From IMG/VR virus record IMGVR_UViG_3300046318_000589: DNA of 64,000 bases; one strand, written 5' to 3'. Made by a program: the position numbers and the translations under genes. Below, piece by piece: positions 17,215 through 51,230 of the stretch. A model generated the notes under the pieces. It had not been told where the DNA came from. It saw only the letters and a list, made by a program, of their open reading frames with translations, and did not search any database. Source of the DNA: a virus (Duplodnaviria; Heunggongvirae; Uroviricota; Caudoviricetes). The first letter of the stretch is position 1; every line of letters begins with the position of its first letter.

Positions 17215-17892
17215 TTAGAGTATAAATGTCCACTGATACCCTTTATGTGATTTACTTTTACCGATACAACATTTTGAAACAGTGCTAAAATCGAACCCGT
17301 CTAATTTTGTTGCATTAACTGATGGGTATTCCTTTATAAGGACATCATCTTTATATTGACCAACTCTTTTCTTTGGTTTTGCATCACTCATTTTCTTTCT
17401 TGTTTCATCTGTATGTTTATATCCTAAACTATTTGTATTACCTTTATATGCGTCACTTATTTTCTTTCTTGTTTCATCCGTCCTTTTTTTACCCCTATTA
17501 CCATCACTCATTTTCTTTCTTGCTTCTTCAGTATGTTTATAACCAACAGAACCCTCTCCTCCTGCTGTCATATTCACTAAAGTACCAGTTCCTAAATCTC
17601 TTCTCCCATAAAGTAGAATAAACTCAACTTCTTTTCTATTTGCTTCCTCTTCTGATAAGCCCTCTATCATTATTTCTATTCTATATTCAGTTTTATTAAT
17701 CACATTATGCCAATGTGGATTACTACGGTGTGTATTTTTACTTCTTTCATATTTTCCATCAATATTAGTTCCTTTACCTATATAAAATACTTCATTTTTA
17801 TCTAAACGAATATGTCTGTATATGTAACAGAGTTTTTGTTCTTGATTATTTTTATTATTTATGGTACTATGACCATGTGGATTATTATCCAT
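17215..17892 (-). CDS. GIY-YIG homing endonuclease with NUMOD3 repeats (Seg/I-TevI-like), copy 1
   Basis: [19 protein letters not shown] (GIY-YIG), three TEEARKKMSD-type NUMOD3 repeats, and a C-terminal CCIGKSKSHKGYQW. The probable start is MDNNPHG at 17892; the ORF-track Met at 17922 lies inside the leader hairpin. Confidence 0.8.
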   Translation of the reverse strand: MDNNPHGHSTINNKNNQEQKLCYIYRHIRLDKNEVFYIGKGTNIDGKYERSKNTHRSNPHWHNVINKTEYRIEIMIEGLSEEEANRKEVEFILLYGRRDLGTGTLVNMTAGGEGSVGYKHTEEARKKMSDGNRGKKRTDETRKKISDAYKGNTNSLGYKHTDETRKKMSDAKPKKRVGQYKDDVLIKEYPSVNATKLDGFDFSTVSKCCIGKSKSHKGYQWTFIL

Positions 17893-17975
17893 GCTGATGT
17901 CCTCTCTGACGTTAGAACCCACAGATGTTTCAGCATCGTGGTGGGTATAATTTAATTAGCCTTTATTATAACATT
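17893..17975 (-). promoter_or_regulatory. conserved homing-endonuclease leader (GCTAATTA promoter motif plus hairpin)
   Basis: GGCTAATTAAATTATA followed by a CCCACCACGATG-N7-CATCTGTGGG hairpin, then an AGAGAGG Shine-Dalgarno sequence. It is paralogous to the leaders of three other GIY-YIG genes. Confidence 0.6.
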
Positions 17976-18086
17976 ATAGGTTTTACAATGTCAAATTTAT
18001 TTACCACTTACAAAGCAATGACTTACATAATAATTATCTAAAATAAATTGTTTCCCTAATTACTTTAAAATATTAAGGAATACAAT

Positions 18087-43263: not shown

Positions 43264-44223
43264 CTATAAATATTTCCAATAATAACTTTTGTGTGATTTA
43301 CGTTTACCTAAACAACAAGCACTGACATTACTGGGGATATAACCATCAGCTCTGGTAGCTTCAATGGAATGATATACTTTTATAAGAATACCGTCCTTAT
43401 ATTGTCCTACTGGTTTACAGTATGACGCATGACGCAGATTTTCTTTAGCCTCCTCAGACATTTTCTTACTTTTATGTTTATCGCTAATTTTCTTTCTAAC
43501 CTGTTCCGATTGACAGGCATTCTCAAATCCATATTTTTCCAAATTAGTCTTTTTTACCTTATTACGAACCTCCTCTAAAAGAAATACGTTTTCTACCCCA
43601 TATTTTTCTAAAAAACTATTTTTTCTTTTTTTATTTATAAGATCATACCCTACAGAACTTTCTGTGCCATACCTTATTACATTAGTTTTATTCCTTTTTT
43701 CTTTAACGTACTCGCTACTTCTAGCATCCTCAACACCATACTTTTTTAAATTAGTTTCCCTAGTTTTACTTGCAACAGAATCTGATAATAAAGGACATTC
43801 CACCCCATATCTCTCTACGTTTGTATTACGTCTTTTCTCCTTAGATTCCTCCGTTGTTAATGCCCCATGACTACCCTGTCCACCGCTTGTTTTATTTACT
43901 AAAGTTCCTGTTCCTAAATCAACTCTTCCATATAATTTAATAAAATATTTTTCCTTTTTACCTAACATCTTAACAGGAACGTCTTTTAGCAAGATTTCAA
44001 CTCTATATTCTGTATTATCAACTACTTCACTCCATTCGTCACTCCTATCCCTTGAATAAGCACGTTCATATTTTCCGTTATCCGTGGTACTTATACCTAT
44101 GTAAAACGGCATATTAGTATCAAGTCTTATATGACGATAAACATACCCAAATTTAATTTTATCTTGATTTTTTGTTTCTTCTGTGTTATCATTAACACAT
44201 GAATTAGCGTTGCTAATTATCAT
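43264..44223 (-). CDS. GIY-YIG homing endonuclease with multiple NUMOD3 repeats, copy 2
   Basis: Starts MIISNANSC. Contains [19 protein letters not shown], six or more KYGVE/EKYG NUMOD3-like repeats, and a C-terminal CCLGKRKSHKSYYWKYL. The ORF-track Met at 44271 lies inside the leader hairpin. Confidence 0.8.
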   Translation of the reverse strand: MIISNANSCVNDNTEETKNQDKIKFGYVYRHIRLDTNMPFYIGISTTDNGKYERAYSRDRSDEWSEVVDNTEYRVEILLKDVPVKMLGKKEKYFIKLYGRVDLGTGTLVNKTSGGQGSHGALTTEESKEKRRNTNVERYGVECPLLSDSVASKTRETNLKKYGVEDARSSEYVKEKRNKTNVIRYGTESSVGYDLINKKRKNSFLEKYGVENVFLLEEVRNKVKKTNLEKYGFENACQSEQVRKKISDKHKSKKMSEEAKENLRHASYCKPVGQYKDGILIKVYHSIEATRADGYIPSNVSACCLGKRKSHKSYYWKYL

Positions 44224-44300
44224 AACCTGGTGTCCTTCCTTGACATTAGAGCCAACAGATGCTGAACACATCGTGTTGGCGTTTTTATATAATAATTAGG
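44224..44300 (-). promoter_or_regulatory. conserved homing-endonuclease leader with hairpin
   Basis: CCTAATTATTATATAAAAAC followed by GCCAACACGATG-N8-CATCTGTTGGC, then TCTAATGTC and an AAGGAAGG Shine-Dalgarno sequence. Confidence 0.6.
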
Positions 44301-44359: not shown

Positions 44360-44395
44360 TTGACATTTCTAAACGTCTTGTGATATTATATGTAT
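44360..44395 (+). promoter_or_regulatory. sigma70-like promoter (TTGACA, 17-nt spacer, TATTAT)
   Basis: Upstream of uvsX. Confidence 0.4.
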
Positions 44396-46582: not shown

Positions 46583-46997
46583 TGTTTGGTATTTTAAGGA
46601 TACCATATTTACAGTATCTGATATAGGGGATTACACAGGATTTGTATATCAGATACACAATCTTACCAATGATAAAAAATATATTGGTAAGAAAGAATTT
46701 TATAAGGTTATAAAAAGACCCCCTTTAAAAGGTAAAAAGAATAAAAGAAAAGCTACTGTATTTACAGATTGGCAAACCTATACAGGTTCATCAAACGATT
46801 TAAATAATGATATAGGATTAGGGCATATAATAAGAAAAGAAATACTAAAATTATGCACCTCTAAAAGCTCCACAACATATTATGAATTAAAAGAACAAAT
46901 GTTTGTTGATGCTTTATTTAAAGATGATTACTATAATCAGATAATAAATATTCGTTTATCAAGTATCTGTAAAAATAATATTTTAAAAGATTTATAA
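46575..46997 (+). CDS. short GIY-YIG domain protein (degenerate homing endonuclease?), copy 3
   Basis: GFVYQIHNLTNDKKYIGKKE fits the GIY-x10-YIG pattern. No NUMOD3 tail. The ATG overlaps the upstream stop (ATGCTTGA). Confidence 0.45.
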   Translation: MLDVWYFKDTIFTVSDIGDYTGFVYQIHNLTNDKKYIGKKEFYKVIKRPPLKGKKNKRKATVFTDWQTYTGSSNDLNNDIGLGHIIRKEILKLCTSKSSTTYYELKEQMFVDALFKDDYYNQIINIRLSSICKNNILKDL

Positions 46998-47678
46998 ATA
47001 TCCCCACTCATAACCTCCATGGGTTTTACGTTTACCTAAACAACAATCACCTACATTAGCAAGAATAAAACCATCTAATTTAGTTGATGTTAATGATGGG
47101 TATTCTTTTATAAGGATTCCATCTTTATATTTACCTACTCTTTTCTTTGGTTTTGCATCGCTCATTTTTTTTCTTGATTCTTCAGTGCGTTTTTTACCCG
47201 TGTTAGATTTTATCCGTTTTGTTATGTGTTCTTCAGTCTGTTTTTTACCTAAACAATATTTATGTCCTTTATTTGCATCACTTTGTTTCTTTCTTGTTTC
47301 TTCAGAGCGAATAGCACCACTAGAACCCTCTCCACCATCAGTCATATTCACTAAAGTACCTGTCCCCAAATCCCTTCTTCCATATAATTTAATGAAATAT
47401 TTTTCTTTTTTATTGACTTCCTCTTCTGATAATTCTTCCAACATTATTTCTACTCTATACTCACATTTATTAACCACATTATGCCAATGTGGATTGACCC
47501 TATCTTTAGAGTATGCTCTCGAATATCTACCGTTCGTATTTGTTCCTTTACCTATATAAAACACTTCATTTCTATCAAGTCTTATATGACGATAAACGTA
47601 ACCTAATTTATTTTTTGATTGATTTTTATTTGAATATGTGATACTATTTTCACATGATTTAGCAATGCTAATTATCAT
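46992..47678 (-). CDS. GIY-YIG homing endonuclease with NUMOD3 repeats, copy 4
   Basis: MIISIAKSC start, YVYRHIRLDRNEVFYIGKG, and a C-terminal CCLGKRKTHGGYEWGYL. Confidence 0.85.
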   Translation of the reverse strand: MIISIAKSCENSITYSNKNQSKNKLGYVYRHIRLDRNEVFYIGKGTNTNGRYSRAYSKDRVNPHWHNVVNKCEYRVEIMLEELSEEEVNKKEKYFIKLYGRRDLGTGTLVNMTDGGEGSSGAIRSEETRKKQSDANKGHKYCLGKKQTEEHITKRIKSNTGKKRTEESRKKMSDAKPKKRVGKYKDGILIKEYPSLTSTKLDGFILANVGDCCLGKRKTHGGYEWGYL

Positions 47679-47760
47679 ACCTGATGCCCTCCTATGGCGT
47701 TAGTGCCAACAGATGTGACAAGCATCGTGTTGGCTTTATAATTTAATTAGCTAAAATAAA
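47679..47760 (-). promoter_or_regulatory. conserved homing-endonuclease leader with hairpin
   Basis: GCTAATTAAATTATAAA followed by GCCAACACGATG-N8-CATCTGTTGGC, then ACTAACGCC and an AGGAGGG Shine-Dalgarno sequence. Confidence 0.6.
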
Positions 47761-49234: not shown

Positions 49235-49452
49235 TTTATGACAATAATATATATCATTATGTTTTTGGGGTTTATCTCAATATCATTCCCTATGATTTTA
49301 GGATATTTATATCCCCATAAAATATGCAATAAAGAGTTGGTAATATCCATAATTAGCGGTGTAAATAAAAACTCATAATTAATTTAGTAAAATATAGAAA
49401 AGCCTTGAAAACTTTTCCTAATTACATTATAAGGTATAAAAAAGGATTGTCA

Positions 49453-50013
49453 ATGAAAAAAATATCACAGTACGCTAAAGAGTGTGGTCTTTCTTACAGA
49501 ACAATATGGAATAGATGTAAAGAAGGAATTATCCCATATCACAAAGATATTAAAGGGAATATTTTTATCTTAGATAATGTTACTAAGAAAAATGATGCTA
49601 TCATCTATGCAAGGGTTTCAAATAACAATAGAAAAGAATCATTAATAGAACAGCAAAAATTCTTAGAAACATACGCATCATCAAAAGACTATAACATAGT
49701 TGGAAGTTTTAAAGAATTGGCTAGTGGAATGAATGATGAAAGAAAAATATTATCGTCTATTTTAAAAAGAGATGATTGGAATGTATTGGTTGTTGAGAAT
49801 AAAGATAGATTAACAAGATTTGGGTTTAATTATATAAAGACATTACTTGAGAAAAATAACAAGAGAATAGAGGTTGTGAATATTACAGATGATGATAAAC
49901 ATGACATTATGACAGACCTTGTTTCTGTAATATATAGTTTCTCCGCAAGAATTTATGGCAAAAGAAAAGCTAAAAGAAAAGAACAAATAACTGAGTTTTT
50001 AAACGAAAAATAA
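49453..50013 (+). CDS. tnpA: IS607-type TnpA serine recombinase
   Basis: MKKISQYAKECGLSYRTIWN (HTH) and IYARVSN catalytic serine motif. The ORF-track start at 49405 is probably too far upstream. Confidence 0.8.
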   Translation: MKKISQYAKECGLSYRTIWNRCKEGIIPYHKDIKGNIFILDNVTKKNDAIIYARVSNNNRKESLIEQQKFLETYASSKDYNIVGSFKELASGMNDERKILSSILKRDDWNVLVVENKDRLTRFGFNYIKTLLEKNNKRIEVVNITDDDKHDIMTDLVSVIYSFSARIYGKRKAKRKEQITEFLNEK

Positions 50014-51230
50014 TGATATTAACAGAAAAACATCAATATAAGTTTAATCAAGAGATGGATGATATATGCTTCCATACGAAAAACGTATATAATAGTTGTT
50101 TGTATATCATACGACAACACTTCTTTGAAACAGGAAAATATATTGGTGTTTACGATCTTTATCATAAAATAACAAAAGAGCCTGTGTGGAAAGAAACACC
50201 TTTACCCAAAAGGGTTTTAAATCAAACAATGAAATTGGCAGATCAAAATTTTAAATCATTTTTTAAAGCATTTGCAAGTTACAAAAAGACCCCATCAAAA
50301 TTTAAAGCAAGACCTAAAATACCTAGCTATAAAGACAGTGTTAAAGGTAGATTTGTTGCAACTTATGAAAAAGGTGCTATAAATAAAAAAGATTTCAAAA
50401 AAGGATATATTAAACTTTCAGGCTCTAATGTTTTAATAAAAACAAAAGTTGAAAATTTTAGTGACATAAAAGAAGTTAAGGTAATTCCTACAATCTATGG
50501 GTTTGAGGTTCTTGTTGTATATGAAAAATTATCTAAATCCCTTAAAGAAAGTGGATTGATATGCTCCATTGATTTAGGATTAAATAATCTTGCAACAGGG
50601 GCTTTTATTAATGGACAACAGCCTTTTATTATTAATGGACGACCTTTAAAGTCTATTAATCAATATTATAATAAGGAAAAATCTAAAAAACAGAGTAATT
50701 TAACAGGAGGAATAAAAACAAGTAAGTCAATTAAAACACTTACGCACAAAAGAAACAATAAAATGAACGATTATTTGCATAAAGCAAGTCGATTATTGGT
50801 TAATCATTTAGTTTCCAATGATGTTAGCTGTCTTATAATAGGCAATAACAAGCAATGGAAGCAAGAAATCAATATTGGTAGTAAGAATAATCAAAATTTT
50901 GTAAACATACCACACAACAGATTTATAGATATGTTAAAATACAAATGTGAACTGGAGGGAATTTTAGTTACTACTACAGAAGAATCTTATACCTCCAAGT
51001 GCAGTTTCTTAGACCTCGAAGAGGTCAAAAAACATGAAACATATAAAGGTAAAAGAATTAAACGTGGAATGTTCAAAGCGTCAAACGGACGCATGATAAA
51101 TGCTGATGTTAATGGTGCGTATAACATTATGAGAAAAGTAATCCCCGAAGCGTTTACGCATGAGGGGATAGAGGGATTTGCAGTAATCCCATCGAGAATG
51201 TCAAGACATTCTCTTAAAATAGTGATATAG
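50013..51230 (+). CDS. tnpB: TnpB
   Basis: 405 aa, about 60% identical to TnpB-1 (SIDLGLNNLA, YTSKCSFLDLEEVKKHETYKGKRIKRGMF, DVNGAYNI). Confidence 0.85.
   Translation: MILTEKHQYKFNQEMDDICFHTKNVYNSCLYIIRQHFFETGKYIGVYDLYHKITKEPVWKETPLPKRVLNQTMKLADQNFKSFFKAFASYKKTPSKFKARPKIPSYKDSVKGRFVATYEKGAINKKDFKKGYIKLSGSNVLIKTKVENFSDIKEVKVIPTIYGFEVLVVYEKLSKSLKESGLICSIDLGLNNLATGAFINGQQPFIINGRPLKSINQYYNKEKSKKQSNLTGGIKTSKSIKTLTHKRNNKMNDYLHKASRLLVNHLVSNDVSCLIIGNNKQWKQEINIGSKNNQNFVNIPHNRFIDMLKYKCELEGILVTTTEESYTSKCSFLDLEEVKKHETYKGKRIKRGMFKASNGRMINADVNGAYNIMRKVIPEAFTHEGIEGFAVIPSRMSRHSLKIVI

Follow-up and report, generated by a model that had tools for sequence, protein, structure and literature searches.

Four structured leaders precede paralogous homing endonuclease genes

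The DNA analysed here (the window) is a stretch of 64,000 nucleotides (64 kb) from the caudovirus record IMGVR_UViG_3300046318_000589, and positions are counted from its first letter. It carries four leaders of about 75 nt upstream of four paralogous homing endonuclease genes (HEGs). We read these leaders directly and aligned them, which confirmed the sites and strands given in an earlier note made from the window alone, and we name them the 17.9, 44.2, 47.7 and 58.4 copies after their positions in kilobases. The parts follow the same order in all four copies: a CTAATTA-N3-TATA box, a hairpin (P1), (U/A)CUAAYG, a purine-rich Shine-Dalgarno sequence, CAYCAG and the ATG. Each P1 hairpin has 11-12 bp with one bulged C, a small helix (P2) touches the Shine-Dalgarno sequence, and in three copies an inverted copy of the box follows the start codon. 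Below we describe the wider family of this leader, the selection on its helices, and the strand on which P1 seems to be selected.

In the 17.9 copy, on the minus strand, the box CTAATTAAATTATA (17946-17959), which also stands before late structural genes, is followed by P1 (17917-17946; ACCCAC-C-A-C-GATG / CATC-T-G-TGGGT), scoring 51 bits with the covariance model R2 described below, and then by UCUAAC, P2 (GUC 17910-17908 with GAC 17901-17899) and AUCAGC (17893-17916), with the Shine-Dalgarno purines within the P2 loop. The ATG lies at 17892-17890 (-), the protein begins MDNN, and no inverted box follows the ATG. The 44.2 copy, also on the minus strand, consists of the box CTAATTATTATA (44288-44299), which could form the 5′ arm of a possible long-range helix (P0), P1 (44251-44280; plus-strand tail GTTTTTATATAAT), and UCUAAU, P2 (GUC 44244-44242 with GAC 44234-44232) and ACCAGG (44224-44250). 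Its start codon, with the ATG at 44223 (-), and inverted box are contained in UAUGAUAAUUAG (44213-44224, -; plus strand CTAATTATCATA), a candidate P0 3′ arm or antisense box. In the 47.7 copy, again on the minus strand, we found the box CTAATTAAATTATA (47737-47750), P1 (47705-47734; plus-strand tail TTTATAATTT), ACUAAC, P2 and AUCAGG (47679-47704), and the start codon at 47678 with its inverted box in UAUGAUAAUUAGC (47667-47679). The 58.4 copy is on the plus strand and is composed of the box CTAATTATTATA (58443-58454), P1 (58462-58491), UCUAAU, P2 (GUC 58498-58500 with GAC 58508-58510) and ACCAGG (58492-58517), and the start codon at 58518 with its inverted box in GUAUGAUAAUUAG (58516-58528).

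Three compensatory changes distinguish these copies. The two reported in the earlier note are real, namely GATG/CATC to AATG/CATT in the inner stem of the 58.4 copy (AAUG/CAUU in RNA) and A-T to C-G in the outer stem of the 17.9 copy. The third, which the note did not name, replaces GUC/GAC by GCC/GGC in the 3-bp Shine-Dalgarno helix of the 47.7 copy (GCC 47698-47696 with GGC 47688-47686). Nucleotide identity among the four cassettes was 68-84% in the leader, 62-78% in the coding sequence and about 50%, the background, in the flanks, and homology runs from the box to the stop codon. Because the leader was barely more conserved than the coding sequence, the four window copies alone could not prove structural selection; the wider family does.

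Two of the starts given by the ORF (open reading frame) finder, 17922 and 44271, fall inside P1, as the earlier note had said, with the correction that the codon at 17922 is a GTG and only that at 44271 is an ATG. Judged by the Shine-Dalgarno spacing and by the same ATG position in more than 100 relatives, the true HEG starts are the predicted ATGs downstream of the hairpin. The same error is seen in the database proteins P0014, P0026 and P0027, which are over-extended, with the leader translated as protein.

The window has a G+C content of 30.7%, and no close relative emerged when the region was compared by megablast with 50,697 phage records. Since it also encodes UvsW-, UvsX-, gp2-, gp5- and gp6-like, PAAR and baseplate proteins, we assign it on gene content to a divergent T4-like phage. 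The CTAATTA-N3-TATA box occurs nine times in the window, against about 0.5 by chance according to our composition-based estimate, and besides the four HEGs it stands upstream of the baseplate hub, PAAR, gp5-like hub/lysozyme and serine recombinase genes. Given its presence before late structural genes, we read it as the predicted general late-type promoter box of this phage; a single base separates it from CTAAATA, a form of the T4-type late box found in relatives. The A/T-rich first block that had been listed as part of the shared leader is thus present, but it is not specific to the HEGs.

The window leaders belong to a widespread leader family

The covariance model R2 was built from IMG/VR leaders only and contained no window sequence. 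Run on the 64-kb window with filters off, it found exactly the four leaders, at 51.1, 34.3, 32.6 and 31.2 bits (E 3e-13 to 3e-7), and the next match reached 13.5 bits. A chance origin of the four leaders is excluded. From covariance models we collected at least 165 distinct leaders, the earlier note having proposed a search of other phages; they lie on viral contigs and on a few contigs of metagenome-assembled genomes (MAGs), often two or three per contig. These comparisons place the window leaders as an AT-rich, diverged subfamily of a widespread putative HEG control leader.

Sequence searches differed widely in their power to retrieve the family. The exact window hairpin pattern was absent from IMG/VR, a pattern with the inner stem and UCUAAYG fixed matched 59 IMG/VR loci, and one with only UCUAAYG and GGAGCRYCAGC fixed matched at least 120; only patterns anchored on the conserved single-stranded parts retrieved the family. 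With blastn, a canonical leader gave only noise against the 50,697 phage records, and given that the megablast search was empty as well, BLAST cannot trace this leader. Nearly all pattern matches share a canonical layout: an (A/C)TAAATA box, a spacer of about 5 nt, a 6-bp outer stem, a bulged C, a purine-pyrimidine (R-Y) pair, a second bulged C, an inner stem of 4-5 bp with a loop of 6-8 nt, UCUAAYGCU, GGAG, CAYCAGC and the ATG. In the window subfamily, the first C of this C-R-C bulge motif pairs with an extra G. In many canonical leaders (e.g. L185, L189, L195, L198 and L225), GTCAA is conserved 9-11 nt 5′ of the ATAAATA box, in a geometry incompatible with a sigma70 -35/-10 pair.

No Rfam 15 family matched the window at its gathering score, and one window copy and one canonical copy, searched on their own, gave only noise below 17 bits. 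With no Rfam match at E up to 10, known small ribozymes were set aside as candidates. In bacterial and archaeal genomes (596 Gb), 58 pattern matches contained 5 real loci, all of them on MAG contigs, and we regard the element as not cellular on this distribution. Starting instead from the proteins, about 9 of 160 loci similar to the window HEG carried the leader, which would then track phage lineage rather than protein family. The HEGs of cyanophages S-SRM01, ACG-2014f and S-N03 are without it, and the leader of F-CphI in S-PM2 is not a family member.

Among the cultured phages scanned, a set that did not include T4, the sole partial relative was found in Pseudoalteromonas phage vB_Psh_XG4 (L344, 1436-1500). 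Here a P1-like hairpin with the CGC bulge motif stands before a HEG, UCUAAYG is missing, and a longer GAAUU/AAUUC helix surrounds the Shine-Dalgarno sequence; it is a diverged relative that is experimentally tractable. The seg43 hairpin of Aeromonas phage 25, which lies upstream of a ribosome-binding site and is termed 'unusual' in the review by Edgell and colleagues, was rejected as a further member, since it is different, and the initial 50 kb of that genome gave no match to the model.

The ORFs behind the leader encode GIY-YIG (PF01541), HNH (PF01844, PF13392) and NUMOD3-only proteins, a zinc-finger protein whose C-terminus is PD-(D/E)xK-like by eye only, and others. The same leader is thus found joined to what are, by these domain assignments, unrelated HEG families and is not tied to GIY-YIG, which bears out the view of it as a portable promoter-plus-hairpin unit. 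At two loci (L211, 8051-8112; L215, 3220-3281), P1, UCUAACG and GGAGCATCAGC are intact, with no ATG or ORF behind them. These may be remnants left after endonuclease loss, as noted for one locus in the account of ocean metagenomes by Dassa et al. (2009).

P1 and P2 are kept by compensatory changes

P1 is formed of 6 bp, a bulged C, the R-Y pair, a second bulged C and 4 bp. In an alignment of 116 leaders, 92% of the cells at the P1 positions were paired, compared with 32-43% when the 3′ partners were slid, and double-sided changes were seen in 12 of the 12 proposed pairs (389 cells). The loop-closing pair 18/27 was unpaired in 74 cells and was dropped, leaving 11 pairs in the final P1. The outer stem had been a selection criterion for the 116-leader set, while the inner stem and the R-Y pair had not, and the outer stem also varied freely in the set retrieved without a stem requirement. 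Moreover, RNAalifold, a structure-aware check of the kind called for in the earlier note, independently returned P1 and P2, with covariation in 13 of the 13 predicted pairs.

P2 joins the base triplet after UCUAAY to a second triplet overlapping the Shine-Dalgarno sequence. This pairing was kept in 94% of cases versus 30-62% when slid, and it was made by 11 distinct complementary triplet combinations, of which GCU/AGC was the commonest; the window has GUC/GAC in three copies and GCC/GGC in the 47.7 copy. P1 itself excludes the Shine-Dalgarno sequence, which is touched only by the separate 3-bp helix P2. No convincing pairing between the P1 loop and CAYCAG was seen by eye, and no formal test of it was made. 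The covariation, spread over more than 160 distinct homologues, indicates that P1 and P2 are kept by compensatory changes, as had been claimed for the hairpin of the cassette.

Mismatches in P1 point to the strand antisense to the endonuclease gene

Single transitions turn Watson-Crick pairs into A.C and G.U mismatches equally, and a helix selected in the sense-strand RNA should retain G.U and lose A.C. We counted the mismatches of the P1 outer stem and R-Y pair in two non-overlapping sets of 79 and 86 distinct leaders, both retrieved without a stem requirement. A.C or C.A exceeded G.U by 25 to 1 in the first set and by 31 to 0 in the second, so that pooled P1 mismatches came to 56 A.C against 1 G.U; these are cell counts, and some A.C may be inherited from a shared ancestor. 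Since A.C is kept and G.U is nearly absent, selection on P1 seems to act on the strand antisense to the HEG, or on the bottom strand of the DNA. The antisense hairpin was also the more stable one in 56 of the 79 leaders (Wilcoxon p = 2.6e-6). The translational leader on the sense strand proposed in the earlier note is therefore an incomplete reading, because this asymmetry and the U-rich tract described next point to the antisense strand.

On the antisense strand, P1 is followed by a U-rich tail, which is ACUUUUAUUUAU in canonical leaders, GUUUUUAUAUAAU in the 44.2 and 58.4 copies and UUUAUAAUUU in the 47.7 copy. When checked as a terminator on this strand, P1 had a stability of -12 to -16 kcal/mol, with the tails GUUUUUAUAU (44.2 and 58.4), UUUAUAAUUU (47.7) and AUAAUUUAAU (17.9). 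A simple terminator scan left P1 unflagged, for which the bulge may be responsible. On the sense strand, P1 is followed by no U-tract, and an intrinsic terminator there was rejected for that reason.

One explanation of these features is that P1 and its U-tract act as an insulator, terminating operon transcription that enters antisense to the HEG, so that the cassette fits either orientation, with the inverted box incidental or serving the pairing with the promoter box that is described below. The mismatch asymmetry and the antisense U-tract fit such a terminator. Cassettes opposite to both neighbours outnumber those co-oriented with both by 52 to 30 (orientation was called crudely, by the longest ORF), three of the four window copies being opposite. 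Further, a strong sigma70-like uvsX promoter (44360-44389, +) follows the 44.2 hairpin on the plus strand, and the 17.9 copy, which is co-oriented with the downstream genes, has the weakest U-tract. Promoter-plus-terminator units are known from T4-like phages in the promoter-stem-loop (PeSL) cassettes (PMC2839356). However, a terminator at the 5′ end of the HEG would act when transcription has already passed the gene, shielding neither the ORF nor, clearly, the promoter, and P1 and the inverted box are equally kept in the 30 co-oriented cassettes. UCUAAYG, P2, CAYCAG and the inverted box would also be left unexplained, and we consider this explanation unlikely.

A second explanation places the function in the DNA or in a bound protein, through a bottom-strand hairpin, a cruciform, an operator or protein-bound single-stranded motifs, for instance in autorepression by the endonuclease. 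G.T wobble is also tolerated in single-stranded DNA hairpins, and a bottom-strand hairpin would thus fit the asymmetry. Moreover, the C-R-C bulges, UCUAAYG and CAYCAG are conserved while the helices vary, suggesting a specific partner, and I-TevI, which represses itself at its own late promoter, provides a precedent (Edgell, Gibb and Belfort 2010, PMC2988022). However, unrelated HEG families with different DNA-binding modules make a common autoregulator unlikely, and a dimeric operator would conserve its half-sites, yet all 11 of the final P1 pairs covary freely. No recombinase or other partner gene was consistently nearby, and we judge this explanation the least probable of those weighed here.

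An inverted promoter box follows the start codon

An inverted copy of the promoter box lies within codons 2-4 of the 44.2, 47.7 and 58.4 HEGs (ATGATAATTAG versus CTAATTAT) and is absent from the 17.9 copy. In the wider family, TATTTA follows the ATG after 2, 1 or 0 nt in 74, 8 and 10 cases, HNH-type ORFs included, and almost all leader ORFs begin MxIY, MIFI or MYL, which are the three frames of TATTTA. TATTTAT is the reverse complement of the late box ATAAATA. Given that the inverted box occurs in all three reading frames, it is constrained as a nucleotide signal. The ORFs of the window subfamily begin ATG-NTA-ATT-AGC (MIIS, MVIS, MLIS), in which TAATTAG is the reverse complement of the sense box CTAATTA, and the TAATTAG form is found exactly where the sense box is CTAATTA (the window copies, L081, L090, L406, L407, L409, L411, L412 and L414).

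The inverted box is missing where the ORF begins with MD, namely in the 17.9 copy, L410, L413 and L416. These leaders have strong TTGACA-N17/18-TATAAT promoters just upstream, often with TG, which suggests an early-expressed variant of the cassette. The sigma70-like promoter of this form at the 17.9 copy lies just upstream, at 17961-18010 (-).

The sense box most often stands 5 nt from the first G of P1, and the inverted box most often 5 nt from the complement of CAYCAG. The inverted box was present in 29 of the 30 cassettes co-oriented with both neighbours and in 44 of the 52 opposite to both, indicating that its upkeep is independent of outside transcription.

The box could also pair with the region around the start codon. 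In the window, this duplex has 8-13 bp including the AUG and a free energy of -9.6 to -11.6 kcal/mol, and 0-3 of 200 shuffles were as good (44.2, -10.3 kcal/mol and 0 of 200; 47.7, -9.6 and 3 of 200; 58.4, -11.6 and 1 of 200). The RNAfold minimum-free-energy structures of the 44.2 and 58.4 copies contain P0, P1 and the small Shine-Dalgarno hairpin, with z of about -3.3. Over 115 leaders, the mean duplex energy was -5.2 kcal/mol compared with -3.4 kcal/mol for controls (p = 1e-7 to 1e-10). We found no covariation that extends the helix past the 7-nt box. Variants of the two boxes were not matched within leaders either; identical pairs numbered 39, against 38.7 expected.

These observations bear on a gating of the kind described in T4. 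In read-through RNA, the box would pair with the start region as P0, closing a three-way junction over P1 and P2 and blocking initiation; late transcripts, starting just 3′ of the box, would lack the 5′ arm of P0 and be translated, and the 5′-terminal P1 would protect the late mRNA from 5′-end-dependent decay. This logic is established for I-TevI, I-TevII, I-TevIII, segB and mobE of Aeh1 (PMC2988022), and it was invoked in the account by Dassa et al. for the TATAAATA-bearing hairpins before free-standing endonucleases in ocean metagenomes (PMC2677866). The strong window P0 and its place in the two predicted folds support it, as does the family-wide gain in duplex energy, which is modest. Sigma70-like promoters lie upstream of the box in the 17.9 and 44.2 copies, and with the box 5 nt before P1 the 5′ end of a late transcript would coincide with the hairpin base. 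However, the complementarity in canonical leaders consists only of the 6-7 A/U pairs of the box, with flanking positions pairing at chance level, and box variants go uncompensated (CTAAATA with TATTTAT, TACTTAT with ATAAATA). The gating leaves the preponderance of A.C over G.U in P1 unaccounted for, and of the 52 cassettes with a divergent upstream neighbour, in which no read-through would be expected, 44 still have the inverted box. We hold it to be possible, if rather doubtful; it and the antisense arrangement set out next are not mutually exclusive.

A predicted convergent module with a short antisense RNA

Taken together, the mismatch asymmetry, the greater stability of the antisense hairpin, its U-rich tail, the 5-nt spacing and the orientation-independent inverted box suggest a compact unit of antisense transcription, some 65-80 nt long, which would span the entire 5′ untranslated region (UTR) with its Shine-Dalgarno sequence. 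The reading we favour, while giving it somewhat less than an even chance, is that the leaders are self-contained modules for late expression, in which convergent late boxes are combined with a short cis-antisense RNA ending at the hairpin. Such a module would travel with the free-standing HEGs of T4-like phages. Its sense box would drive a late HEG mRNA whose 5′ end coincides with the start of P1 or slightly precedes it. Facing the sense box from about 75 bp downstream, the inverted box would drive the antisense transcript, which would start some 5 nt beyond the inverted box, where the complement of CAYCAG(C/G) reads (G/C)CUGRUG. This RNA would carry the anti-Shine-Dalgarno sequence CUCC in or beside the small helix, and it would end at the antisense P1 followed by the U-rich complement of the sense box.

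In IS10, RNA-IN and RNA-OUT are made from face-to-face promoters, and the antisense RNA is a short stem-loop over the ribosome-binding site of the transposase. By analogy with RNA-OUT, pairing of the antisense RNA with the whole 5′ UTR, together with head-on transcription, would lower translation of the nuclease. Given that the single-stranded parts are conserved between copies, the antisense RNA of one copy could also act on the others. In the window, this arrangement would apply to the 44.2, 47.7 and 58.4 copies, while the 17.9 copy is without the inverted box and with a sigma70-like promoter upstream. That a dedicated cis-antisense RNA, with its own late promoter in codons 2-4 and P1 as terminator, throttles the HEG and could act in trans across copies or phages is a bolder proposal, which we regard as a speculative possibility.

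Several points weigh against the antisense arrangement. Both promoters and the terminator are predictions from the sequence. An A-rich sense box is automatically a U-rich tract on the opposite strand, and anything that pairs with the promoter box is automatically a box on the opposite strand, so that the U-tract and the inverted box cannot separate the antisense RNA from the T4-style pairing. The inverted copy in the window subfamily has CTAATTA but only the TA of TATA (CTAATTA-TCA-TAMC); should the -10 function depend on TATA(A)A, the antisense box might be inactive. The bulges of P1 are unusual for intrinsic terminators, and the simple scan did not flag it. The within-leader variants of the two boxes are uncorrelated, as counted above. 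Finally, cis-antisense pairing alone leaves the strict conservation of UCUAAYG and CAYCAG unexplained.

Relation to known phage control elements

Control of phage HEGs by a late promoter and a 5′ RNA structure is already known (Edgell, Gibb and Belfort 2010, PMC2988022). Like the present leader, the hairpins of the T4 family combine a late promoter directly upstream of the HEG with RNA structure in the 5′ leader and a promoter complementary to the initiation region, presumably for the purpose of limiting the nuclease. There, the ribosome-binding site is buried by one strong local hairpin that also contains the promoter, whereas the hairpin of the present leader lies between the promoter and the Shine-Dalgarno sequence, which P1 leaves unburied. 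Complementarity to the promoter is in our case a separate, long-range, A/U-rich match after the AUG; the long-range helix is strong in three window copies and, family-wide, weak and without covariation. The present leader also differs in being one sequence family common to hundreds of HEGs from unrelated protein families, and in having a hairpin that seems to be selected on the antisense strand.

The closest description is that of Dassa et al. (2009, PMC2677866), whose account of ocean 'fractured genes' reports that 15 of 16 endonuclease 5′ UTRs contain hairpins and that the T4-type late promoter TATAAATA accompanies 10 of these. As described there, two conserved motifs pair in the stem, the genes encode GIY-YIG and new Vsr-like endonucleases, and the structures are single RNAfold hairpins for which sequestration of the ribosome-binding site was suggested. 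Compared by description rather than by motif logos, that element is probably the same as the present leader, which was then partly anticipated. A zinc-finger ORF with the present leader resembles the Vsr-like family, by eye only. That paper does not report the bulged architecture, P2, the inverted box, covariation statistics, the spread to freshwater and jumbo phages, or the strand asymmetry.

The earlier note had likened the leader to the PeSL cassettes of T4-type phages, which combine a sigma70 early promoter with a terminator stem-loop (Arbiol et al. 2010, PMC2839356; Comeau et al. 2014, PMC4122927). Both are cassettes of about 100 bp, with promoter, stem-loop, Shine-Dalgarno sequence and start, that are common to unrelated ORFs and repeated within a genome, and both may be recombination linkers that shuffle ORFs with their own transcription signals included. 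In PeSLs, however, the stem-loop lies between or over the -35/-10 boxes and terminates upstream sense transcription, and the cassettes flank small ORFans within hyperplastic regions, not HEGs. The present leader has a late-type box (CTAATTA-N3-TATA in the window, (A/C)TAAATA in the family) and no sigma70 early promoter as its promoter part, and its hairpin lies downstream of the box, with a U-tract on the other strand and none on the sense strand. By its sequence, the present leader thus falls outside the PeSL definition, and the resemblance is functional only.

A precedent for antisense RNA at a HEG of a T4-like phage is CfrI of S-PM2, whose start, as cited in PMC2984593, lies 57 nt within the HEG F-CphI and which extends over the entire 5′ UTR (Millard et al. 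2010). It differs in that the S-PM2 leader lies outside the present family and that the present antisense transcript is a prediction.

Downstream genes and neighbouring features of the window

The four window HEGs are paralogues that are 47-62% identical. They encode proteins of 225 aa (17215-17892, -), 319 aa with a DUF7487 insert (43264-44223, -), 228 aa (46992-47678, -) and 238 aa (58518-59234, +), the last of which is identical to P0004, a protein present on 12 public contigs. They match NUMOD3 of Pfam and phrog_314 'homing endonuclease'. The earlier note had called them GIY-YIG genes; no Pfam match to GIY-YIG PF01541 was found in them, even at E up to 5, but hhalign of the N-terminal domain of the window HEGs against PF01541-positive proteins gave 87% probability (E 4e-6) and aligned the YIG, Arg, Glu and Asn motifs. 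This profile-profile comparison supports a remote GIY-YIG assignment, including that of the 225-aa protein.

The 58.4 HEG varies within the population, as P0012, from another JGI sample, is a 204-aa variant of it with an internal deletion of NUMOD3 repeats. In other contigs, close relatives of the window HEGs (L406-L416) occupy similar sites to theirs, beside uvsX/recA-like genes, gp2, thymidylate synthase and terminase, usually opposite to both neighbours. A fifth HEG of the window, of the SegE GIY-YIG type (PF19835; 46404-46997, +), lies tail-to-tail with the 47.7 HEG with a 6-nt overlap and has no leader of the present family.

Adjoining the 58.4 HEG, 57726-58145 (-) encodes a small protein with a GmrSD N-terminal domain (PF03235). 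An IS607-type pair (49418-51230, +) lies inside the phage, composed of a serine recombinase (49453-50013; PF00239) and a TnpB-like protein (50013-51230; PF01385 and PF07282), and is preceded by the late-type box CTAATTACATTATAA at 49418. The PAAR-like ORF (phrog_281; 8089-8379, -) is without an in-frame ATG, GTG or TTG after the upstream stop; an ATT at about 8361 is a possible start, and two late-type boxes lie upstream, at 8448 and 8391.

Significance of the leader family

Free-standing HEGs are the main mobile elements of large lytic phages and shape which genes win in mixed infection, and how the phage or the element itself restrains them has been worked out for just a few T4 and Aeh1 genes. 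The architecture of the leader (bulged P1, P2 and inverted box), its statistical support, its absence from Rfam and its strand asymmetry appear to be new, as does its occurrence both with unrelated HEG families and on freshwater, marine and jumbo-phage contigs. The leader is defined here as one strongly covarying, putative control element that hundreds of HEGs from unrelated families have in common, in T4-like and jumbo phages that are uncultured.

Should the sense-strand model alone prove right, the leader still marks HEG starts, which are often mis-called inside the hairpin or through the leader, reads out the late-promoter boxes of uncultured phages, and aids the study of how regulatory cassettes are swapped between selfish genes. 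If the antisense prediction is true, the leader would represent a general antisense brake on HEGs and a new RNA family. If action in trans is true as well, it would provide copy-number or competition control common to unrelated selfish nucleases in single or mixed infection.

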